A stretch of 10,502 nucleotides of DNA, from contig JBGCDR010000041.1 of NCBI GenBank assembly GCA_045105515.1, positions 1 to 10,502 on the forward strand, read 5' to 3'. This document shows, one piece after another, positions 108-10,395 of the stretch. The notes beneath the pieces are model-generated. The model was not told the origin of the DNA and made no database searches. It worked only from the letters and a program-made list of their open reading frames with translations. The number at the start of each line of letters is the position of its first letter. Positions within the stretch are counted from its first letter, which is position 1. The translations under genes were made by a program, and so were the position numbers. Origin of the DNA: Oligoflexales bacterium. GTDB lineage: Bacteria > Bdellovibrionota_B > Oligoflexia > Oligoflexales > Bog-1112.

Positions 108-294
108 ATGGGAGCTTAATCTTCGTCTTGCCAGTAATAAACAACACCTAATAGCAAAGCATCTCTTCGCCGAGCTGACTGAATATGGAGTTGAAATCCT
201 CCGGTTTGATGGATCAATTTGGAGAGCTGTACCTGATCAAGAATCTATAAAGAGAATCTTGAAATCATTCAATTTAGCTGCCAATAATTTATAA
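108..294 (+). pseudogene. Possible gene remnant or frameshifted ~62-aa ORF, resembling the C-terminal half of DUF6824 (alternative: D5_N-type primase fragment)
   Basis: Frame 109-294 is open: WELNLRLASNKQHLIAKHLFAELTEYGVEILRFDGSIWRAVPDQESIKRILKSFNLAANNL*. An ATG at 108, preceded by AGGTG, is out of frame by one base. Removing one G from ATGGGAG gives MELNLR.... The LIA..L...L...G...L..D...W..V.D.....R pattern was recognised by eye only. Confidence 0.3.
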
Positions 295-302
295 TTATCC
301 AC

Positions 303-333
303 TTGATTTTAAGTTTGAATAATAGGGTATAAT
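303..333 (+). promoter_or_regulatory. Possible sigma70-type promoter of the HA-domain gene
   Basis: TTGATT (303-308) and a perfect TATAAT (328-333) lie 20 nt before ATG 354. The 19-bp spacer is long and the background is AT-rich. Confidence 0.3.
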
Positions 334-353
334 CAATAAAATAAGGCTTAAAA

Positions 354-971
354 ATGAAGAAACTGATTTTAATTGCATTCGTAATGTTTGAAGGTTTACT
401 ATTAGCTAATAATCAATCTGATACTAGATTCAAATCTTTCCAAATTGATAGCTGGAATACCCGCTATAATGAACTTTTGAAATTTTATCAGATTTATCAG
501 CATGTAAATGTGCCTCACACCTATCCCGCAAACCCTCAACTCGCCAGGTGGGTAAAGCGTCAAAGACGACAGCACAAACTTTTAGAAGAAGGTCATTCAT
601 CGACACTCAGCTTTGAGCGTTTCAATCGACTCAATGATATTGGTTTTATATGGAATTCTCATGAACAGAAGTGGCAAGAGATGTACAGGCAATTAAGAGA
701 TTTTTCCATCAACAACGGTCATTGCAATGTTTCATCCAACAACCCCAATAAAAAACTAGCTACTTGGGTAAAATGCCAACGAAGACAATACAAGCAATTA
801 ATGTCTAAAAAATGCAGCTCTATGAGCCAAAGTCGTATTGAACAACTAGAAAGCATTGGTTTTATCTGGAATGGCAAATTAACCAATAATATCGAAAATC
901 AGCTAACAGAAGACGATTTAAGGTATTTCTCCCATGAGTGGGAAAATGACCCATTAAACTTGTTAGAATGA
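354..971 (+). CDS. Signal-peptide protein with two tandem helicase-associated (HA, PF03457-type) domains and no helicase
   Basis: N-terminus MKKLILIAFVMFEGLLLA|N is Sec-like. Two repeats of W...Y..L..F....H.NV......LA.WVK.QRRQ.K......S......R...L..IGFIWN at aa 34-101 and 107-173 (nt about 453-656 and 672-872). Confidence 0.9.
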   Translation: MKKLILIAFVMFEGLLLANNQSDTRFKSFQIDSWNTRYNELLKFYQIYQHVNVPHTYPANPQLARWVKRQRRQHKLLEEGHSSTLSFERFNRLNDIGFIWNSHEQKWQEMYRQLRDFSINNGHCNVSSNNPNKKLATWVKCQRRQYKQLMSKKCSSMSQSRIEQLESIGFIWNGKLTNNIENQLTEDDLRYFSHEWENDPLNLLE

Positions 972-982
972 ATAGTCTAGCT

Positions 983-1717
983 TTAATTTAAACTAGGTTC
1001 ATTGGGTTCTATATTTCTTGGCATGTCAGAAGGGATGGAAAGAAGATTTTGAGCATAATCTCCTCCTAATTCACCTTCATACCGATAAACATATGCAGAA
1101 TCTACATACATCAACTTACTATTCTGATTTTTAGAAGTAAATTTTAACTTGAATGAAAACTGGATATCGTCTTCGTTACCTGCAAATGGAACGACCAATA
1201 TTTTAGAAGGAAATTGAAGAGATTTCTTTGAAATCTCACCAGCAATATCAACCCAGCCATCAGAACTAGATTCAGGATTCGCTTCAACTTCCATGACAGC
1301 TTCAAAACGATCTGGATTTGCAAGTTCCTGAGACAATTCAAACTCAGAAGCTTCAATATCAATCAATGCAACATTCCTTAAACCACCACTAACATGATAG
1401 AAAATCTTGATCAGTTTCCCTGTCTTATTTTTTATTGATAAAGAAGAACGGAAGGAAACACCCCAAATACTGAATGAACTCTCATTAATCTCGGGAATGA
1501 TATAAGTACCATCTTCATTTACATTTATATTGATTTCATTACTTTTGATCGTTCCACCCCATCCATTTTGAATGGACCAAAAATACTCTACTGCAAGTTC
1601 GCTTGTTTTTAGATTGGTATAGTTGCTAATTTTGTAGTGCCTTGCCGGCTGTTGAAACCTTTCGGCCATTAAGGTGGAAGAAAACACTGAAAGATAAACC
1701 AATAACAAATATCTCAT
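983..1717 (-). CDS. Secreted hypothetical protein, 244 aa, probably beta-rich
   Basis: Start moved from 1777 to ATG 1717, which has a strong AGGAGG site upstream (1724-1729) and begins the signal peptide MRYLLLVYLSVFSSTLMA|E. No family recognised. Confidence 0.8.
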   Translation of the reverse strand: MRYLLLVYLSVFSSTLMAERFQQPARHYKISNYTNLKTSELAVEYFWSIQNGWGGTIKSNEININVNEDGTYIIPEINESSFSIWGVSFRSSLSIKNKTGKLIKIFYHVSGGLRNVALIDIEASEFELSQELANPDRFEAVMEVEANPESSSDGWVDIAGEISKKSLQFPSKILVVPFAGNEDDIQFSFKLKFTSKNQNSKLMYVDSAYVYRYEGELGGDYAQNLLSIPSDMPRNIEPNEPSLN

Positions 1718-1935
1718 ACAATCCCTCCTACATTCTTTTTTTATAATTATAACCTGCCAATATACTAACCGTTTCATCTGTTATTACAACTCATACTCAA
1801 TTATGGCTGATTAATTCACAAACAATGCAGTCTACAAATTTTTTGTGGCGATTTTACTTCTGTTGGCATTGGGAGCTGATATGAGATAGAAGCATGGCTT
1901 TATTAAATCGTTTCAAGATAATTAGGTGGCTCAAA

Positions 1936-2115
1936 TTATCCACTGCTCAAGTATGATATTAGGCCAATAATAATAGGCAGCAAGACAAGAAAAATAATCA
2001 ATGCGATTCGATTTTTATTAGGTTTATCCTTGAGAGCCTTTGGCATTATCTGAGAATTCTGAATGGTTTTCGTGAGAGAAAACTTGTCATTATTCTGGTT
2101 TTCAGGCTTGTTCAT
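1936..2115 (-). CDS. Small 59-aa protein with one C-terminal transmembrane helix (not in the ORF track)
   Basis: ATG 2115 to TAA 1936: MNKPENQNNDKFSLTKTIQNSQIMPKALKDKPNKNRIALIIFLVLLPIIIGLISYLSSG*. Polar and basic N-terminus followed by about 20 hydrophobic residues. Co-oriented with both flanking genes. Ribosome-binding site is weak. Confidence 0.6.
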   Translation of the reverse strand: MNKPENQNNDKFSLTKTIQNSQIMPKALKDKPNKNRIALIIFLVLLPIIIGLISYLSSG

Positions 2116-2138
2116 CTAGAATCTCGGTAGTATTTACT

Positions 2139-2159
2139 TTTGCCAATTAAATTGACAAA
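2139..2159. repeat. Imperfect inverted repeat, possible operator or hairpin
   Basis: TTTGCCAAT-TAA-ATTGACAAA with one mismatch (a G-U pair on the minus strand), between the cyclin stop and the small ORF start. Confidence 0.3.
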
Positions 2160-2237
2160 TTACGAAATAATTATAGCACGATTCTTGATGAAATCCATCG
2201 AAACTCTCATTTGCTCTGCAAGGCAATTGAGACCAAA

Positions 2238-3218
2238 CTAAGCTCCTGTATTTGTTTCGTTAACAAGGTGCAACCGACTTCTCAGCTCAACAATTTCAGT
2301 GGAATCAATTTCAAGACCAAATTCTCTTGCTGCATTTTGGTAAAACTGGTTTTTGCTATCATCATCGAGTTTTAAAGTATAGCGAAATCTCTTATGGTTA
2401 TACTCATAATAGTCAAAGTAAGTACGTTCTATAGCATTAACTAGGGCCGCAAATGCCACTGACGCAGCTGGAAATGTTATAAAAAACGACTCATGCTGCG
2501 ATAACTCTGTAACAAAAAGTGCATTCTGATAAATTGGAGTTCCCAAAGAACTATTAGTATTTATAAGTTTCATAAATCTTAAAAGGTAATCGTCTTCAAG
2601 AGGCGGATTAAGCCAATACTCCAAAGACTCCATGATCTTCAGTTCTTCTTCAGCGATGCGCTTGGAGTCAAACTTTCCCCTGCTAAGTTCAGCCATTGCT
2701 TCAATACCAACCCTCCGAGGTTCCTGAGTTTTGAAAGCAAAATAAAGTGCTGTTGTCGCCGCCAATTGGAATTCTTCTTTAGTGCTAATTTTAGTTTCCG
2801 CCAAATAACGATCCAATATTTTAATGGCAAAAGCTACAACTTTACGATTGATATCAAAGTGGTCCACAACCTGAAAAGCCCACTCACAAATTTTTTCCCT
2901 CCAAAGAGGTGTAATTTGTGACACAGATTCGCCAGAGGAATCACTATCGTAAGTGTCCTCTGGAAAGTAGTATTCAACGAGGTATGTTTCTGATTCCCGC
3001 CTCTGCATAACCTTAATTTGCTCAATCACCATTTCTCGATCAATTTTCATACTCTGCTCTACTGACATTTCCCCATAACCGATTGTATCAGGTTGTTCTG
3101 CTGATATTTCCGCAAAAGCGCTTGTATCAGTCAGTTCTTCTGGCATTTCCCCAAAAGAGTTTGTATTGGTAAAGGTGACACATAAAAAAAGCAGAATTAA
3201 AAAGGATTTCACAAACAC
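2238..3218 (-). CDS. Signal-peptide-bearing eukaryotic-type cyclin (Cyclin_N plus Cyclin_C), similar to diatom-specific cyclins
   Basis: GTG start with GAGG upstream (3229-3232). Signal peptide MFVKSFLILLFLCVTFTNTNSFG|E. Cyclin box motifs: WREKICEW (MRAIL-helix equivalent), LDRYL, FQLAATTALYFAFKTQEP (Lys163), IAEEELKIMESLEYWLNPP (Glu192). Second fold: LFVTELSQHESFFITFPAASVAFAALVNA. Confidence 0.92.
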   Translation of the reverse strand: MFVKSFLILLFLCVTFTNTNSFGEMPEELTDTSAFAEISAEQPDTIGYGEMSVEQSMKIDREMVIEQIKVMQRRESETYLVEYYFPEDTYDSDSSGESVSQITPLWREKICEWAFQVVDHFDINRKVVAFAIKILDRYLAETKISTKEEFQLAATTALYFAFKTQEPRRVGIEAMAELSRGKFDSKRIAEEELKIMESLEYWLNPPLEDDYLLRFMKLINTNSSLGTPIYQNALFVTELSQHESFFITFPAASVAFAALVNAIERTYFDYYEYNHKRFRYTLKLDDDSKNQFYQNAAREFGLEIDSTEIVELRSRLHLVNETNTGA

Positions 3219-3564
3219 TAAACATTTTCCTCAATAGCTAACACACAAATTAAGTAATCAATCCCCCCAGTTCTTACGAAAATATGTGGGTTTTTACAAG
3301 CAATAATTCCTTATGAATCCATAAAAACACCTTGTAACAAGCTATTATTTAACACCTATTCTTCCTATTTAATTCTCAATATAGGCTCTGAACACGACCT
3401 AAGTAGGATTCAAGGATTGTTTTTACCACATCTAAGGCTTACTTTACAATTTCCGTCGTTCACTGTTGATAGGCATGAGAATTCATTATTTAAACTTGCG
3501 AAATGTTAGATAAATGAGGAAGATAAAACCGCCTTTTTTTGAGTTCATTATTGAGGTAATCCTG

Positions 3565-4605
3565 ATGCTCAACTATTTTTTGTTTTTTCTTTTAGCTATT
3601 TTTCCCTTATTTGTATATGGAACAGAACCCGAGAATAAGCCCCCAATACTCGAAATAGCAGATGATCTGACTTTCAGAATTTTCGGCTTTCTCAAAGAAG
3701 AAGAGCTTGTTGATTATAGCGAAAGCAATAAATCCAGTCATAGATTGTTTGGTGCATATGTATCCTCACCTGTAGATAGTCCAAATGGACAGAACTTACG
3801 TAAATCCAGTTATTTTCACATAGTGGTCGAAAATGACCTTTGTTTATTTTTAAATGAATATCTGAAAAAAAAACAGCACACTCCGATATCAACGATTGAA
3901 AATATTGTCGAACTTTCTAAAAAATTTCCCAATATCTTATTAGAAATTTTACTAAAAGCTGATCCAAAAAACCATAAACAAAGCTATGCCCAGCTCGAGT
4001 ATTTCTTCAATACCACTTTTGCTATGGATAGGATAATTTCTCATTTACCTGCATTTAAATCTAACCATGAGAACTTAGCAAGTGTGCTAATTGAATTATT
4101 AACTTGGACACACATTTGGTGGAGTAAGGCAAGAGAAACTGTAATCAAAGAAATAAAAGAACAATTAGACGACCATCTGGCACAAGATATAAGCCTTCAA
4201 ACCTTCGATCAGCTGAATCTCATAATCGAGCAAAGAGCTGGTGGACACATAAGAGACCAATTATGGGATCAAGTTTGGGACAAAGTTGGCAATGAATTAG
4301 ATATATTTATCTGGGATACAGCATTCCAAATTGAGCAACTAAATTCGAACCCTTCTGTGATAACTCTTAAGCACTTCCCTTTTCTCTTAGCGCATAAACA
4401 AGGAACGCTAGACGAGATGGTGAGATCGGCTATGGATTATAGCTTCATGATGTACCAAATGGAAAATATTGTGCTTAGAAATTCGGAATTCTTTCTTGAA
4501 CAACATAGAAATCTAGCTAACACTATTTTATTTAATTTGCCTTCTAAACAGATTAAAGATGCTCTAAGATCCATAATGCCCCCCCAAAACCAAACCATTT
4601 TTTAG
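3565..4605 (+). CDS. Signal-peptide protein with an N-terminal F-box-like motif and an unknown helical C-terminal region
   Basis: Start moved from 3514 to ATG 3565, which has GAGGT at 3553-3557. Signal peptide MLNYFLFFLLAIFPLFVYG|T, then ILEIADDLTFRIFGFLKEEELVDYSESNKSSHRL, which fits the F-box hydrophobic spacing in divergent form. The CDS is solid. The F-box call is about 0.5. Confidence 0.75.
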   Translation: MLNYFLFFLLAIFPLFVYGTEPENKPPILEIADDLTFRIFGFLKEEELVDYSESNKSSHRLFGAYVSSPVDSPNGQNLRKSSYFHIVVENDLCLFLNEYLKKKQHTPISTIENIVELSKKFPNILLEILLKADPKNHKQSYAQLEYFFNTTFAMDRIISHLPAFKSNHENLASVLIELLTWTHIWWSKARETVIKEIKEQLDDHLAQDISLQTFDQLNLIIEQRAGGHIRDQLWDQVWDKVGNELDIFIWDTAFQIEQLNSNPSVITLKHFPFLLAHKQGTLDEMVRSAMDYSFMMYQMENIVLRNSEFFLEQHRNLANTILFNLPSKQIKDALRSIMPPQNQTIF

Positions 4606-4676
4606 TTGAAAGCTATTTACAGGTTATTAGAAATAATACTTTTTCCGTGCAGAAAGAAAATTCTTTGAATAACCCT

Positions 4677-6821
4677 TTATCCAAAGGAGCCTAAATTATT
4701 GCTCCATTTTGTTAGGGCGCTGCTTAGTTTTGACCGGTATATTGGTTTGGACATATAGTCATTCATACCCACTTCAAGGCACTTTTCTTCATCACTAAGC
4801 ATAGCATTTGCTGTCATAGCAATAATAATTGGTTGGCGATTCAAATTTAATTGGCGGATCAACTTTGTGGCTTCATATCCATCCATGACCGGCATCTGAC
4901 AGTCCATAAAAATCAGGTCATAGGTGTTCTGCTCTACCATTGCAACCGCCTGTTTTCCATTAACTGCTGTGTGACAATTAATTTTGAATTTTTCGAGAAA
5001 AGAAAGTGCCAACTCCCGATTAATAAGGCTATCCTCAACCAACAAAACACTTAACTCGGGAAACTTTATTTCTTCTGGATTTTTCATTATTTCATTTGTC
5101 TCTAAATTATCTACAGCATTTAATTCAAGCTCAAAGTAAAAATGACAACCAGTTCCGAGGGTACTCTTTACCTCTATTTTACTAGCAAATAGCTTTGCCA
5201 GTTTTTGAGATATGGACAATCCCAATCCTGTCCCACCAAATTTTCTTGTGGTGGAAGCATCTGCTTGAGTAAAATCTGCAAACACGTTGCTTAGCTCTTT
5301 CTCAGCAATCCCAATTCCGTCATCCTCTACTGCAAAAAAGACTTTATGCTTGCCAGGTCTCAAAGCTCTGCTTTTCACCCGAAGAATTACCAGACCATTC
5401 TGTGTAAACTTTATAGCATTGCTAACCAAATTGGTGAGAATCTGAGCTAAGCGGTTTGAATCTGAGCTCACAAACCTTGGCGTCCCTTCTTCAATTTCTA
5501 GATGAAAGTCTATACTTTTTTCAAGAGCTCGTGCTTCAAACAATTGATAAATAAATTTAAGCTGCTTGTGAAGATCAAATGGCTGCATATCAAGAGACAT
5601 AATTCCTGCATTGATTTTGGATATATCCATAATGTCATTAAGTATTTTCATCATCGTCTCCCCAGATTGGATGATGGTTGACACTATTTTTTCTTGAGCT
5701 GAGTCTAAATTTTGATCTAGGAGTAAATCTGCATTACCTAGTACCCCATTCATAGGAGTACGGATTTCATGACTCATGTTAGCTAAAAACTGAGATTTTG
5801 CTGTACTAGCCTTCACAGCTTCTTCCTTCGCTAATAGTAATTTATGCTCGTTAGCTTTCTTTTCGGTAATATCTTGAATAGTTCCTCTGAGGCTTTTAGA
5901 TCCTTCAGAATCAATAGATACGGTGCCCACGGTTTTTATCCATATATTTTTTCCACTTCTGGTGATAAAGGGAAGATCCAAATTCCAACCTTCATCATAT
6001 TCAATTGCTTTTTGCAGTGCTAAAGTAAAGGTAGGTCTTGCTTCTTCAGCATAAAAACTAACTGCGTCAGCAACATTAATTTTTTCCCCGATTGGTAACT
6101 CATGAATGCGATAAGCTTGGTCACTCCACCAGAATTCTCCGGTTTCGGCTTTAAGGGACCAACCACCAATTTTAGCTAATCTGTTTGTTTCATTTAAGAG
6201 ATTCTCTACCTCTTCTTTTTTACTTAATGTTTCCTTTAGTATCTCTTTCGCATCAATCAAAGTGGATTCAAAATATTCTCGATATTTTTCAAAGTAATAT
6301 GAAATCGCTCCACAAAGAAAGATAGAAAATGCATGAAAGATGGCACCCATAATATCCGAGCTATTAGGTCCTTCAACACTTGCTCCCTCTAGAGCTCTAA
6401 TCAATATAAGATCCATTGCTGCCGCAAACATGCCTATCAATAGGGAAGCGCCAAATGCAAACTGTTTACCGAGAAAAAAAACATAGGCCATTGGCAAAAC
6501 TGAATACCACCAAACAGAAGTCTGACCATCTGAATGAATAAAATATTGATTTACAGGTATTACAATGGATACAAATGAGAGCAACAGAATTGCAGAAGTT
6601 TTATAAGATTGCTTACGCAAAACGAGCCGAACGAAAATAAAATAAGCTAAACATAAAGCAGCGACTACCACGCCTTCAATAGACATATCAAAGACTAGTG
6701 AAACGCATAATGATAGAAATGTTACAATTATGGAAAGATTTAAGGCTGAGGAGAAAATCGCCTCACGAAACTTGTTGTAAGGTTGATTATCTTTAAGTTC
6801 GTGATTCACCATAATATCCAT
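4677..6821 (-). CDS. Membrane hybrid sensor histidine kinase/response regulator (multi-TM, PAS, HisKA, HATPase_c, REC)
   Basis: About 5-6 TM helices. PAS/PAC segment IGGWSL...WWSDQAYRIHEL...GTIQDITEKK. H-box FLANMSHEIRTPMNGV, N-box QILTNLVSNAIKFT, G1 DDGIGI, G2 GGTGLGLSIS. Receiver VEDSLIN, FMDCQMP, AMTANA, SKP. Confidence 0.97.
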   Translation of the reverse strand: MDIMVNHELKDNQPYNKFREAIFSSALNLSIIVTFLSLCVSLVFDMSIEGVVVAALCLAYFIFVRLVLRKQSYKTSAILLLSFVSIVIPVNQYFIHSDGQTSVWWYSVLPMAYVFFLGKQFAFGASLLIGMFAAAMDLILIRALEGASVEGPNSSDIMGAIFHAFSIFLCGAISYYFEKYREYFESTLIDAKEILKETLSKKEEVENLLNETNRLAKIGGWSLKAETGEFWWSDQAYRIHELPIGEKINVADAVSFYAEEARPTFTLALQKAIEYDEGWNLDLPFITRSGKNIWIKTVGTVSIDSEGSKSLRGTIQDITEKKANEHKLLLAKEEAVKASTAKSQFLANMSHEIRTPMNGVLGNADLLLDQNLDSAQEKIVSTIIQSGETMMKILNDIMDISKINAGIMSLDMQPFDLHKQLKFIYQLFEARALEKSIDFHLEIEEGTPRFVSSDSNRLAQILTNLVSNAIKFTQNGLVILRVKSRALRPGKHKVFFAVEDDGIGIAEKELSNVFADFTQADASTTRKFGGTGLGLSISQKLAKLFASKIEVKSTLGTGCHFYFELELNAVDNLETNEIMKNPEEIKFPELSVLLVEDSLINRELALSFLEKFKINCHTAVNGKQAVAMVEQNTYDLIFMDCQMPVMDGYEATKLIRQLNLNRQPIIIAMTANAMLSDEEKCLEVGMNDYMSKPIYRSKLSSALTKWSNNLGSFG

Positions 6822-6844
6822 GTCTTATAAAACCGTTACATCTG

Positions 6845-6873
6845 TCATCGGCGGGGAAAAAAATAAATCTTAG
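6845..6873 (-). promoter_or_regulatory. Putative sigma28 (FliA/SigD) promoter of the hybrid kinase
   Basis: Minus strand reads CTAAG-N16-GCCGATGA, ending 23 nt before ATG 6821. The spacer is slightly long and contains a poly-T run. Confidence 0.55.
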
Positions 6874-7059
6874 TACTTTTATTCCAAACTAAGTACAGAC
6901 GTAATATCAGAAAGCTTAAACCTTTAATATCCTGCTTGCTCTCTTGCTTTCTTGGTAAAATTACCATCAAAGAAACTTAGCGGTGCTTGATAAACAAACA
7001 AGCCATGCCAACTGGATATTTTTTGTAAATAAAACCATATTTTTTGGTGCAATTTAATT

Positions 7060-7109
7060 TTGATGATAAAATATCAACAATATTCATCCTTACAAAGAGG
7101 ATGATTTTT
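7060..7109. repeat. Two adjacent inverted repeats in a divergent intergenic region
   Basis: TTGATGATA-AAA-TATCAACAA (7060-7080, one mismatch) and TCATCCT-N7-AGGATGA (7084-7104) followed by TTTTT. Confidence 0.4.
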
Positions 7110-7284
7110 CATGATATAAACAAAATCCATATCAAATATCTTTAAAATTTGAAAACTCAGTGTAATATTGAAATATGACTCATATAATTCTAGGTAGGGA
7201 CCAAATATGCAGTAAGATATTTAGATTTGCATTCTGCAATTATATCATTGATAGAAAAAAATCGAGGGTAGTAGGGAGTTGAGC

Positions 7285-7629
7285 ATGAAGGTGCTAATGG
7301 TAGATGACGAGGAAGATTTGCTTTATGTTCTTGGAGCAAGTTTTGAAGGCTTGGGAATTGAGTTTGAAACAGCCTCAAATGGCGAAGATGCCCTTGACAG
7401 ATTTGGCTCATTCAAGCCAGATATTGTATTAACTGACTACAATATGCCTAATATGAATGGGGTTGAACTAAGCAAAAAACTTAAAGAAATAAATAAAGAT
7501 ATCAAGATCATCCTATACACAGCCTTTGATTGTGTCGAAAAGGAAGATAGGGGTCTTTTCCATACTGTCTTAGGTAAACCACTCCTGTCTACAGAGGTAA
7601 TTGATGCTATTAAAGAGCTAATCGACTAA
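7285..7629 (+). CDS. Stand-alone response regulator receiver (CheY-like)
   Basis: ATG 7285 has GGAG at 7275-7278. Motifs: VLMVDDE acidic pocket, LTDYNMPNMNG phospho-Asp, LYTA, GKP. No output domain. Confidence 0.95.
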   Translation: MKVLMVDDEEDLLYVLGASFEGLGIEFETASNGEDALDRFGSFKPDIVLTDYNMPNMNGVELSKKLKEINKDIKIILYTAFDCVEKEDRGLFHTVLGKPLLSTEVIDAIKELID

Positions 7630-7656
7630 TTCTCTGCATTTAGATCAAGTGAGGAC

Positions 7657-7687
7657 TAGATAAAACTAGGATTTCTTATTTTATCTA
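7657..7687. terminator. AT-rich hairpin between convergent genes, possible bidirectional terminator
   Basis: TAGATAAAA (7657-7665) pairs with TTTTATCTA (7679-7687), with an inner TAGG/CTTA stem. Confidence 0.35.
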
Positions 7688-8100
7688 CTTATCTTGATAC
7701 ATTCCAACTGCCTTGATCTCAAAAAGTATCTCTGGAGACTGTTGCTCAAGCTTTTATCGGACATCCTGACTAACTTTATTCCCACTTCCTATCCCCAATA
7801 ATTTTTTTGTAGCTTTCCCATTTCGTTTTTGCTACGAGTAATTGACTGGTGATTTCAGAATTTGCAGTTTTTTCTATTCTCATTTTTTTGTCACCATTAA
7901 GCATTGCATCAAGGGATAGGCCAATATAATCCTTAGATTTTTTTGAAAGATCTTTGTTTTTACCCGCATCTGTTTTAGCTGCGATTAGTAAAGTTCTTTG
8001 CCAGCCTTTGTGAAAGCATACGTAGTCTTCCTGCAATGTTAATTGTTTTACCCGATCCTTTAAATCCAGCCTTAAAGGCTGTCTCATAAGATTTAAATTG
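7685..8100 (-). pseudogene. Frameshifted PilJ/NarX-like four-helix sensor domain pseudogene (PF13675-type)
   Basis: Frame A (8046-7996) gives TINIAGRLRMLSQRLAK, a P-box-like motif. A shift near 7990 leads to LLIAAKTDA...LDAMLNGD...SQLLVAKTKWESYKKII. A second shift near 7790 leads to NKVSQDVR*KLEQQSPEILFEIKAVGMYQDK*. No usable start codon precedes the motif. Confidence 0.8.
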
Positions 8101-8175
8101 CCTGATTTTTATCGCGCTGGAAAGGTCGGCGATGCCAGCATAGTATTGTCGATAACAGCTACGATCTACAAAAGC

Positions 8176-10020
8176 TTAGCCAGCCTTTTTATTGCTTAAT
8201 AGATCCATGAATTTTTTCGGAAATGACAATACAAAACAAGTATTTCTATTTTTTTCATCATAGCTTAGAGACCCCTGATGATGCTCCATAATCCCTCTTG
8301 AAAGGCTGAGCCCAAGGCCGGTACCCTTTCCTATTTCTTTAGTGGTATAGAAAGGTTGCATCATCTTCCTCCGGATCTCTTTTGAAATTCCCGATCCACT
8401 ATCCGTGATTCTCAGTTTAAAAAACTCATCTGATTCCTCAAAATCGATTTTAATCCATTTATTGTCTAAACCTTCTATGGCATCAAGAGCATTTCCGAGC
8501 AAGTTCATCAAAACCTGTTCTATTTGCCCAGGCTTACAAGTAATAGAAACATCAATAGGAATATTAGTAATGTAAAGTTCTGCTCCATTTTTTTGAACCT
8601 GGTGCCGACTAAATGATATAGCTTCATCAACCAAGCGAGACATGAAAACAGAAATGAAGGGATCACTGGTAGAATCTCTCGCGAAAGTTTTTAATCCGTC
8701 CACAATTTTAGATATTTTATCTGAGCCTTGCTCTATTATCCCGGCAAATTCTTTGATCTGCTGTTTATCAAAACTATCCTTGGCAACGAGACGGCAAATT
8801 TGACTTGCCCGGGTTTTAATAACTGCTAGTGGTGTATTTATTTCATGAGAAATACCAGCAGACATTTCACCTAATGCTGCCAATTTTGATGATTCAACCA
8901 GTGCTTCTTGAGTAAATTTTAGTTTCTTAGTTCTTTCAATTATCTTTACTTCGAGTTTTTCTTGATAATCACCAAGGCTTTCTAATGAGCTATTTAGCGT
9001 CTCACCAAGGGTGTTGATACCATCTGCAAGTTCATTAAATGCCCGAATATTCGATTTACCTACTTGTTTACTAAAATCATTACTTTTATAAGTATTTAGA
9101 ACATCTACACTACTTTTAACGATGTTTCTAGCTTCTCTATTTAATTTTTCCATGTACTCCTTGAAGAAAGTCCCAATAGATAAATTGGCAATTATGATGG
9201 AAATAATCAAAATTAGGTATAAAGAATCTTGATTAGATTCAGAAAAGTAGAATGAAAGTACAGAATAAGCAATAACTCCTGATGTAAACAATAGAGTATT
9301 AAAAATACTGAAGAAAAATAGAGCCATTAAGGGAATTGGAATGATTGCATACGAAACGGGACCAGAGAGACCTCCCGTATTCTCAATGGCATATACAGCA
9401 CAAACGAACCAAATGATTATATAAAGAGTTATACATAGCTCCAATTTAAAGTGTCTCAAAAGGAACTTAGTTAATAGACTTAATAGAAAAAACACTCCAC
9501 TTGTAATACTCAAATCCTTAGTGTTAAGTGTAAAAAATGCTGCTACGCCTATAAATAGTGAACAAAAAATTCCGATCGTAGCCATTAAATTGAATGCTGC
9601 TTCTTTTTGCTGCTTATAGTAACTTTCTTTTTTTATTGTTTTATTTAAATCATCCTGATTATTAGCTAGCAACCAATCGATTGCCAACTTTCTATTTAAA
9701 AACTTTCTTGTTCTCGACTCTTCCTTTAAAAATTTATAAATTATTCTATTTATCCCTCGCATTGATTTTTTGCAGATAATAACAGCAATACTATCAAATT
9801 TTTTCTCAAGGTTTTCAAGAATTTCATTATATAAACGAGATTTATTCGAGCAATCTATCAGTAAGTTTTTGTAACTCATACCTTTTTTTTTTTGCAGCTC
9901 TGCCAACTGTTTACAAAAATACAAAGGACTAGGAATCATTTCTCCTTTAATAATAACTTCCATAATTCCATTGCTCCAATAACGAACAACAACCCAGTTC
10001 AGCTCATTTTCAGCAAGCAA
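8176..10020 (-). CDS. Membrane sensor histidine kinase (NtrB-like HisKA/HATPase_c) with a possible N-terminal SpoIIAA-like domain
   Basis: About 5-6 TM segments, a HAMP-like linker (FNELADGINTL), a coiled coil, H-box SAGISHEINTPL, N-box [38 protein letters not shown]. The TTG start is uncertain. Confidence 0.93.
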   Translation of the reverse strand: MLAENELNWVVVRYWSNGIMEVIIKGEMIPSPLYFCKQLAELQKKKGMSYKNLLIDCSNKSRLYNEILENLEKKFDSIAVIICKKSMRGINRIIYKFLKEESRTRKFLNRKLAIDWLLANNQDDLNKTIKKESYYKQQKEAAFNLMATIGIFCSLFIGVAAFFTLNTKDLSITSGVFFLLSLLTKFLLRHFKLELCITLYIIIWFVCAVYAIENTGGLSGPVSYAIIPIPLMALFFFSIFNTLLFTSGVIAYSVLSFYFSESNQDSLYLILIISIIIANLSIGTFFKEYMEKLNREARNIVKSSVDVLNTYKSNDFSKQVGKSNIRAFNELADGINTLGETLNSSLESLGDYQEKLEVKIIERTKKLKFTQEALVESSKLAALGEMSAGISHEINTPLAVIKTRASQICRLVAKDSFDKQQIKEFAGIIEQGSDKISKIVDGLKTFARDSTSDPFISVFMSRLVDEAISFSRHQVQKNGAELYITNIPIDVSITCKPGQIEQVLMNLLGNALDAIEGLDNKWIKIDFEESDEFFKLRITDSGSGISKEIRRKMMQPFYTTKEIGKGTGLGLSLSRGIMEHHQGSLSYDEKNRNTCFVLSFPKKFMDLLSNKKAG

Positions 10021-10080
10021 TTTAATGGCATTAACTCCCGATAAAAAAGAATAAACTCAACACGCACACATTCTTCTGTA

Positions 10081-10107
10081 TTATCGGCCACTAAGTTTTG
10101 AACTTGA
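10081..10107 (-). promoter_or_regulatory. Sigma28 (FliA) promoter of the sensor kinase
   Basis: Minus strand reads TCAAG-N14-GCCGATAA, with an exact -10 consensus and canonical spacing, 60 nt before the ORF start. Confidence 0.75.
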
Positions 10108-10173
10108 TTAAATAGTAAGAATTGAGCCTGGAAAACAATTATTAAACTCAATTGTAGTAAGATATGACTAATA

Positions 10174-10395
10174 TTAGGCTGCTTGGTTTTTTGGCAAACT
10201 TAAGATAAAAGTAGTGTATTTTGCGGAGCTATCTAGTTGTAGACTCCCTCCATGCATTTCAGCAATTCCTTTTGAAAGGCTCAAGCCCAGACCAGTCCCA
10301 ACCCCCACATCCTTGGTCGTAAAAAATGGCTGCAAAATTTTATCCTTTATTTCATCTGGAATACCCAGGGCTGATTCAAATAAGATTTTTTCCAA
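10174..10395 (-). pseudogene. Truncated histidine kinase ATPase C-terminal fragment
   Basis: [40 protein letters not shown] keeps the F and G2 boxes. G1 is degenerate (ESALGI instead of DSGxGI), H and N boxes are absent, and an in-frame stop lies about 10 codons upstream. Confidence 0.8.

Follow-up and report, generated by a model that had tools for sequence, protein, structure and literature searches.

A two-domain cyclin with a predicted signal peptide in the genome of an Oligoflexales bacterium

The stretch of DNA analysed here (the window) is an entire 10,502-bp contig, JBGCDR010000041.1, from the genome of an Oligoflexales bacterium (GCA_045105515.1; 6.29 Mb in 461 contigs, 90.9% complete, 4.8% contamination), and one of its genes encodes a real, intact two-domain cyclin (Table 1). 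We refer to this genome as G000, to the window contig as C41 and to related genomes as G001, G005, G010 and G050. The cyclin opens with a predicted Sec-type signal peptide and has its nearest named relatives in diatoms. We lean towards its being an exported effector that acts in an algal host together with a cyclin-dependent kinase (CDK)-type kinase, either the host's or the bacterium's own.

An intact cyclin in a bacterial genome

In a Pfam scan, residues 97-203 of the window protein matched Cyclin_N (PF00134) with a score of 63.1 bits (cutoff 23; E 2.8e-17), and a six-frame search of the genome gave the window cyclin 65.4 bits with the same model. Cyclin_C (PF02984) had no match in the protein at E<=0.01, nor did any Pfam family besides Cyclin_N, so that the profile check proposed in the preliminary description of this DNA succeeded for the first fold and not for the second. 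The best sequence match in the PDB was human cyclin B1 (E 1.8e-8, residues 102-263), followed by v-cyclin, cyclin E1 and cyclin D1. An AlphaFold2 (AF2) model built from a 38-row family alignment (predicted local distance difference test score, pLDDT, 82.7; predicted template modelling score, pTM, 0.79) comprises two helical bundles, residues 104-198 and 208-323, and Foldseek aligned 256-283 columns of it with full-length cyclins A, D1 and E at a target-normalised template modelling (TM) score of up to 0.82. Model and structural alignments therefore demonstrate that both cyclin folds are intact.

The HMMER alignment with cyclin B1 places R107 on the Arg and W113 on the later Trp of MRAILIDW, K163 on the Lys of ASKYEE and E192 on the Glu of QMEMKIL. 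Across the 38 rows of the family alignment R107 is invariant and K163 and E192, which we take to be the equivalents of cyclin A K266 and E295, are nearly so. RxxL motifs occur at residues 279, 313 and 315 only, none of them ahead of the cyclin box, and the protein contains no KEN box. Residues 24-60 hold ten Asp or Glu against one Lys or Arg. The preliminary description had proposed two intact folds, retention of these four interface residues, an acidic linker behind a signal peptide and the lack of an RxxL destruction box before the cyclin box, and on all these points our data agree with it, the signal peptide as a prediction.

The signal peptide follows from the choice of start codon. The first in-frame start after the upstream TGA (3233-3231) is a GTG at 3218, with GAGGA 9 nt ahead of it; Shine-Dalgarno-like motifs precede 1093 of the 2943 long open reading frames (ORFs) of the genome. 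The ATG at codon 25 is preceded merely by GGGG, 2-3 nt upstream. Read from the GTG, the protein has a positive n-region, a hydrophobic core and the sequence SFG/E, an n-h-c layout that passes a crude, home-made signal-peptide rule, which we used here in place of a dedicated predictor. The same rule flagged seven of nine bacterial-type cyclins and CDK-like kinases, as against 0 of 161 eukaryote-type family members; the two misses were the metagenome proteins P0120, whose signal peptide is weaker by eye, and P0119, which may be cut. In the family alignment the diatom proteins start at about residue 55-60 of the window cyclin. Because the rule flags no eukaryote-type member and the diatom proteins start later, we regard both the signal peptide and the acidic linker as bacterial additions.

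Table 1. Coordinates of the cyclin gene and its parts in the window, and of PHO80-type cyclin boxes in a related genome
Feature	Position	Strand	Remarks
Cyclin gene	2238..3218	(-)	326 codons + stop, GTG start
Shine-Dalgarno GAGGA	3228..3232	(-)	9-nt spacer before GTG; in-frame TGA at 3233-3231; read directly
Predicted Sec-type signal peptide, residues 1-23	3150..3218	(-)	n-region MFVK, hydrophobic core, SFG/E; crude rule
Acidic linker, residues 24-52	3063..3149	(-)	disordered in model, pLDDT <50 for residues 1-47
N-terminal helix, residues 53-79	2982..3062	(-)	family motif VMxRxE..Y; pLDDT ~96
Low-confidence acidic, Ser-rich loop, residues 80-103	2910..2981	(-)	precedes cyclin box
First cyclin fold, residues 104-198	2625..2909	(-)	five helices; W106-R107-E108-K109-I110, W113, K163, E192
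Second cyclin fold, residues 208-323	2250..2597	(-)	AF2 model and Foldseek
Tyr-rich beta-hairpin insertion, residues 267-282	2373..2420	(-)	within second fold; found elsewhere only in P0119 and P0120
PHO80-type cyclin boxes (PF08613)	G005 L004:1447-2460; L007:1441-2874, 2910-3290		two adjacent

The gene is truly bacterial. Separate Logan assemblies of three runs, which represent three samples of one study and are possibly the source of the genome, each yielded one 10,281-bp contig that covers positions 111-10,391 of the window with 0 differences, at depths of 14.5, 37.3 and 46. The cyclin gene has a GC content at third codon positions (GC3) of 33.4%, compared with a genome mean of 33.5% +/- 4.4 (51st percentile), and its codon likelihood lies at the 69th percentile of the 2943 long ORFs. 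Among 168 contigs of similar length, C41 is at the 76th percentile for tetranucleotide distance and, with 35.1% GC, at the 10th percentile for base composition. The window is 80% coding, without interruptions, and by Pfam scan also holds a hybrid histidine kinase, a receiver protein and a second histidine kinase, the catalytic core of which has relatives of 35-47% identity in 26 of 31 related genomes. No relative of the cyclin was found in the viral contigs searched, and the diatom contigs bearing relatives (20 inspected, from 80 of 158 relatives) have 40-48% GC and encode no signal peptide. Assembly contamination, a concern raised at the outset, is thus answered by three identical run contigs, native codon usage and bacterial two-component genes on the same contig.

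Diatom relatives and the origin of the gene

A word-indexed search returned 110 matches from 2439 candidates. All 14 matches with a spelled-out organism come from diatoms, both centric and pennate, and the best diatom relatives share 36-45% identity with the window cyclin over 50-78% of the protein. An exhaustive HMMER search gave 3504 matches at E<=0.001; in the ranking of the best 150 of these, a tandem double cyclin of Thalassiosira exigua, P0119 and P0120 stand above the ordinary diatom set. P0119 is 47% identical to the window cyclin, whereas P0120 is 40% identical and repeats its whole layout of signal peptide, acidic linker, cyclin and Tyr-rich insertion. The contigs that carry P0119, P0120 and two further proteins discussed below, P0186 and P0262, measure 7, 72, 30 and 26 kb, respectively. 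A scan of genome contigs for relatives detected the G050 locus only, and in a metagenome scan, whose 80 loci (from 158 relatives) are mostly short, the 20 inspected are diatom-like and none is the contig of P0119 or P0120.

The alignment reveals a signature common to the diatom family, consisting of an N-terminal VMRxQE..Y helix, LWREKICEW.YQVVDHFD and LSRG.F. The preliminary description had singled out WREKICEWxFQVVDHFD, VMQRRESETY and ELSRGKF as marks of diatom cyclins, rightly so: they are shared in the alignment, inside and outside the cyclin box. Examples of the family are hypothetical proteins of Mediolabrus comicus, Skeletonema potamos, Cyclostephanos tholiformis and Thalassiosira exigua (KAL7547856.1). 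The family probably corresponds to the diatom-specific cyclins (dsCYC) described by Huysman et al. 2010 (PMC2872877), a group defined by its exclusive clustering with T. pseudonana cyclins and its separation from classes A, B, D, H, L and P. In our comparison, made with sequences that bear no dsCYC label, the relatives with organism names are all diatoms and the window cyclin falls beside the named diatom clade.

The diatom proteins share with the window cyclin the N-terminal helix, the cyclin-box motif, LSRG.F, two folds, the same Lys and Glu and an altered MRAIL patch, and those genes that we examined are single ORFs. The window cyclin differs from them in being encoded by a bacterium, in its added signal peptide and acidic linker, in the beta-hairpin insertion of its second fold and in its position outside the named diatom clade in the trees; moreover, most diatom matches carry Pfam Cyclin_C, which is undetected in the window protein.

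We built a quick tree of 64 rows and a careful tree of 39 rows (LG+C20+F+G4), the rows dropped being representatives picked by rank order, irrespective of result, and the two agree. The window cyclin, P0119 and P0120 form one clade (support 100 in the quick tree and 94/82 in the careful analysis). The latter adds to this clade first the copy from G050 (Pseudobacteriovorax; 83/63) and then P0186 (84/83), which also opens with a signal peptide; the columns kept for the trees include only three signal-peptide residues. The resulting clade, the named diatom clade (86/73) and a second subfamily (96/87) branch from a common polytomy, the first being nested in neither of the others. A second cyclin of G000 and a kinase-cyclin fusion of G010 sit on very long, unplaced branches, and a single clade of all seven bacterial or signal-peptide rows was not rejected (p-AU 0.138). 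The trees are unrooted because the set contains no canonical cyclin outgroup. Given a topology that offers neither nesting nor a root, we therefore inferred the donor from the identity of the relatives.

On this sequence-based footing, the data point to a stramenopile alga of the diatom kind as the donor in an old transfer, after which the gene diversified in bacteria. We favour an old event because the bacterial and signal-peptide proteins make up a separate clade outside the named diatoms. A recent capture from Thalassiosirales is unsupported, both by that separate clade and by fully native codon usage. The 'captured' cyclin of the preliminary description accordingly holds as an old event and fails as a recent one; of the diatom origin that it expected from phylogeny, the diatom identity of the nearest named relatives stands, while nesting within diatoms is not seen in the trees. 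The five-copy clade spans 26-47% identity, yet keeps the fold and, in most members, the N-terminal signal. Such retention among diverged copies argues for long-term selection.

Candidate kinase partners and the proposed role in an algal host

The genome encodes six full-length TLC/NTT nucleotide transporters (389-677 bits; contigs C74, C181, C166, C40, C393 and C190) and two adjacent GspD-type (type II) secretins above the NCBIfam cutoff. Passages of one report (PMC12865303) describe Oligoflexales of the FD111/Oligoflexus/Pseudobacteriovorax kind that adhere to Nannochloropsis and other microalgal cells, replicate within them and leave behind ghost cells. The bacterium analysed here shows signs of life inside eukaryotic cells. 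Six NTT paralogues are also an unusually large set for a 6.3-Mb bacterium that retains many two-component systems.

Cyclin_N occurs twice in G000. The second copy, on contig C317 (221 amino acids (aa), 46.7 bits), has a signal peptide and lies about 3 kb from a gene for a 440-aa Ser/Thr kinase with a lipoprotein-like N-terminus. A paralogue of this kinase, encoded on C167, shares its long N-terminal region, and a receiver protein on C317 resembles that at 7279-7629 of the window. At E<=0.001, Cyclin_N was detected in 5 of 61 relatives, G000 included; at E<=1e-4 all carriers belong to the window's own family and none of 14 control genomes has it. When the window cyclin itself served as query against G001, G005, G010 and G050, only G050 gave a match (31% identity). 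G001 has a cyclin-like ORF without the first helices. The copies in G005 are PHO80-type cyclins (PF08613), one of which NCBI names 'cyclin family protein', and would stem from an independent acquisition, of another cyclin class; one PHO80-type protein carries a threefold internal repeat ahead of its cyclin box.

In G010 a single 551-aa protein (L003:469-2124), encoded beside a histidine kinase, combines a signal peptide, Pkinase (132.7 bits) and Cyclin_N (39.3 bits) and keeps the catalytic HRD. A search for relatives of its cyclin half recovered its own record only, and folding from the single sequence gave an unusable model (pLDDT 35.8).

G000 encodes a CDK-like kinase of its own at C106:8124-9131 (L009:1417-2424), 335 aa long and with a signal-peptide-like N-terminus; on either side are genes for a membrane sensor-like protein and for a small one that is UspA-like by eye. 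Its best PDB matches are CDK3, CDK2 and CDK1 (E ~1e-43), and in the alignment it has HGD for HRD and a His at the position of the CDK3 activation-loop Thr. Non-RD kinases generally need no activation-loop phosphorylation. The closest relative of the C106 kinase, P0262 (48% identity), shares both the signal peptide and HGD; the other relatives are eukaryotic CDKs at <=38% identity that are not specifically from diatoms. The genome has 19 Pkinase matches in all, and 5 of 11 extracted Ser/Thr-kinase ORFs have signal-peptide-like N-termini. The periplasm is devoid of ATP, and a kinase outside the bacterial cytoplasm is without ATP unless it finds itself within another cell.

We propose that an ancestor of these Oligoflexales acquired the cyclin from a stramenopile alga and added the Sec signal peptide and acidic linker. 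The protein would leave the cytoplasm via Sec, then perhaps pass through a type II system, reach an algal host cell and bind a CDK-type kinase by the retained Lys/Glu interface, switching CDK activity on, or misdirecting it, at an inappropriate time. The absence of a destruction box may allow it to evade the turnover of D-box cyclins by the anaphase-promoting complex/cyclosome (APC/C) type of machinery. Export beyond the periplasm, the host, CDK binding and an effect on the cell cycle are all inferred. A host CDKA-type kinase is a plausible partner since the interface residues are retained and, according to passages of a diatom study (PMC4392632), dsCYC2 and dsCYC7 bind CDKA1 in yeast two-hybrid assays. 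Also pointing to the host's CDKA, no CDK-like kinase is seen in G001, G005 and G050, three of the other four genomes with cyclins, where the best kinase matches are without WYRxPE and HRD/HGD. In favour of the bacterium's own kinase are the joint occurrence of cyclin and kinase in G000, the predicted export signal carried by both and the fact that G010 naturally joins the two in one protein.

Several observations weigh against an exported effector of algal descent. The public gene call starts at the ATG of codon 25 (302 aa) and so has no signal peptide; the predicted signal depends on the putative GTG start, and the crude rule is permissive, since it also flags 30.5% of 3715 ORFs of the genome. 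A Sec signal peptide delivers a protein to the periplasm only, and effectors injected by type III, IV or VI secretion systems (T3SS, T4SS, T6SS) usually have none. The MRAIL hydrophobic patch is altered to W-R-E-K-I, as throughout the diatom family. The distribution is patchy: at E<=1e-4, four of the 95 genomes from the order and four of the 131 from the phylum carry Cyclin_N, and with the window cyclin as query no orthologue was found in G001 (same genus, 94% complete), G005 or G010. The G050 copy, on a contig of 2155 bp, has Ser and Gln in the K163 and E192 columns. A CDK-like kinase is present in only one of the four other cyclin-bearing genomes (G010), the clade of the window cyclin is not nested inside diatoms in an unrooted tree, and the three runs with the gene are labelled just 'plant metagenome'.

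An alternative that we consider unlikely, though the strongest of those weighed here, is that the cyclin's partner is specifically the bacterium's own exported C106 kinase, the two forming a portable holoenzyme that phosphorylates host targets and needs no CDK-activating kinase. Cyclin and kinase reside in one genome, both with signal-peptide-like N-termini, and in G010 signal peptide, kinase and cyclin are parts of a single chain, a Rosetta-stone argument. The HGD of the C106 kinase, its His in place of the activation-loop Thr and the HGD of P0262 fit the same picture, as does the HRD kept by the G010 fusion, whereas protist fusions have Asn for the catalytic Asp (PMC3019232). However, the two genes lie on separate contigs, C41 and C106, the PSTAIRE helix of the kinase is very divergent, and no orthologue of it was found at E<=1e-25 in 60 relatives. 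In addition, G010 alone of the four other cyclin-bearing genomes has such a kinase, and the nearest eukaryotic relatives of the C106 kinase are not diatoms, so that the histories of the two proteins need not be shared. A complex prediction for kinase residues 24-335 with cyclin residues 50-326 scored 0.00, controls being absent, and speaks neither for nor against binding.

The boldest form of this idea is that some algal-invading Oligoflexales export a self-sufficient cell-cycle engine, made of a D-box-less cyclin of the diatom type and a non-RD CDK-like kinase that works without an activating kinase (the two being one chain in G010), which inside the algal cell forces an S-phase-like state or rewired phosphorylation and raises nucleotide pools that are then imported via the six NTTs. 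We regard it as doubtful; if true, it would be a bacterial counterpart of the viral-cyclin strategy.

It is improbable that the protein is not exported or stays in the envelope, its cyclin fold having been co-opted for a bacterial role such as regulation of Ser/Thr kinases, or that it is a drifting, functionless relic. The public start at codon 25, the 19 Pkinase matches, the patchy distribution and the G001 ORF without first helices would suit this explanation. No RNA dataset is among the listed carriers of the gene, which is no evidence either way. Yet the ORF is intact with native codon usage, five copies at 26-47% identity keep the fold and mostly the signal, the GTG has a well-spaced GAGGA that the ATG at codon 25 lacks, and signal peptides likewise open the second cyclin, the CDK-like kinase and the G010 fusion.

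Diatom or giant-virus DNA misbinned with the bacterial genome, or a chimeric assembly, is scarcely credible: a 461-contig metagenome-assembled genome with some estimated contamination, the low GC rank of the contig, the short G050 contig and reports of CDK-cyclin fusions in some protists (PMC3019232) could suggest it, but the same contig emerged from three per-run assemblies, its coding is dense and uninterrupted, the gene has a GTG start with a Shine-Dalgarno sequence, codon and tetranucleotide usage are native, histidine kinases of the lineage's own type flank it, viral contigs hold no relative, diatom contigs with relatives differ in GC and in having no signal peptide, and the paralogue and the CDK-like kinase sit among bacterial genes on two further contigs.

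Neighbouring genes and known systems

The product of 354-971 (+) in the window is 205 aa long, contains two Helicase-associated (HA, PF03457) repeats (129 bits) and starts with a hydrophobic segment that a single Glu causes to fail the crude signal-peptide rule. G000 has three two-repeat HA proteins (C41, C188 and C282), compared with none in 14 control genomes. HA repeats are abundant in stramenopiles, and the protein may be a second alga-derived, exported one next to the cyclin. The ORFs that flank the cyclin gene, 983-1777 (-) and 3514-4605 (+), belong to no known family and look signal-peptide-like from an internal Met. An F-box suggested by eye in ORF 3514-4605 was considered and rejected: the ORF has no Pfam match at E<=0.01, an F-box-like model finds none on C41, and the Atlas is unsupportive. 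Promoter-like sites do not exceed their frequency in shuffled sequences, and the search for terminator-like sites gave none.

The contig ends, 1-124 and 10366-10502, are high-copy repeats with a word depth of 700-10,765 in the three runs, compared with 14-46 in the body, and we attribute the assembly breaks at these points to them. Contigs also connect 136 to 10366 and 4218 to 10365 through 22-24 letters.

Cyclins and CDKs are regarded as eukaryotic hallmarks, and parasite-encoded cyclins are known from viruses. A literature search of limited scope, outside which the FD111 and Oligoflexus genome papers fell, found no bacterial cyclin. The gammaherpesvirus v-cyclin (PDB 1g3n, 1jow, 1bu2, 1f5q) likewise belongs to a parasite of eukaryotic cells that captured a cyclin gene, probably to the same end of driving host CDK activity outside normal controls. 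The v-cyclin matches (E 3.9e-7 to 1.2e-4) rank behind cyclin B1 and indicate no specific kinship; unlike v-cyclin, the window cyclin is bacterial, must cross bacterial membranes and comes from another donor lineage.

CDKs with integral cyclin domains occur in oomycetes, ciliates and Theileria, with Asn replacing the catalytic Asp (Judelson & Ah-Fong 2010, PMC3019232), and have the same kinase-then-cyclin order as the 551-aa protein of G010. The G010 fusion supports the view that these bacterial kinases and cyclins work as pairs. The window cyclin, by contrast, stands alone, and while the protist fusions may be inactive, that of G010 keeps HRD and has a signal peptide.

Legionella Dot/Icm effectors and the cyclomodulins CDT, Cif and CNF embody the same concept of host-derived domains or interference with the cell cycle. 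CDT, Cif and CNF are enzymes or toxins and not cyclins, and effectors of this kind carry T4SS or T3SS signals in place of a Sec signal peptide. The word 'cyclin' is absent from a Legionella effector atlas (PMC11696984) and from a genus-wide effector preprint (10.1101/350777). Next to these systems, signal-peptide cyclins that form a conserved family and share a genome with a CDK-like kinase would represent host-manipulating factors of a new class, and such proteins are already in public databases, unremarked. The gene also documents old gene flow from stramenopile algae to bacteria and, in a lineage related to bacteria that crash microalgal cultures, would offer a tractable handle on host control by algal parasites.

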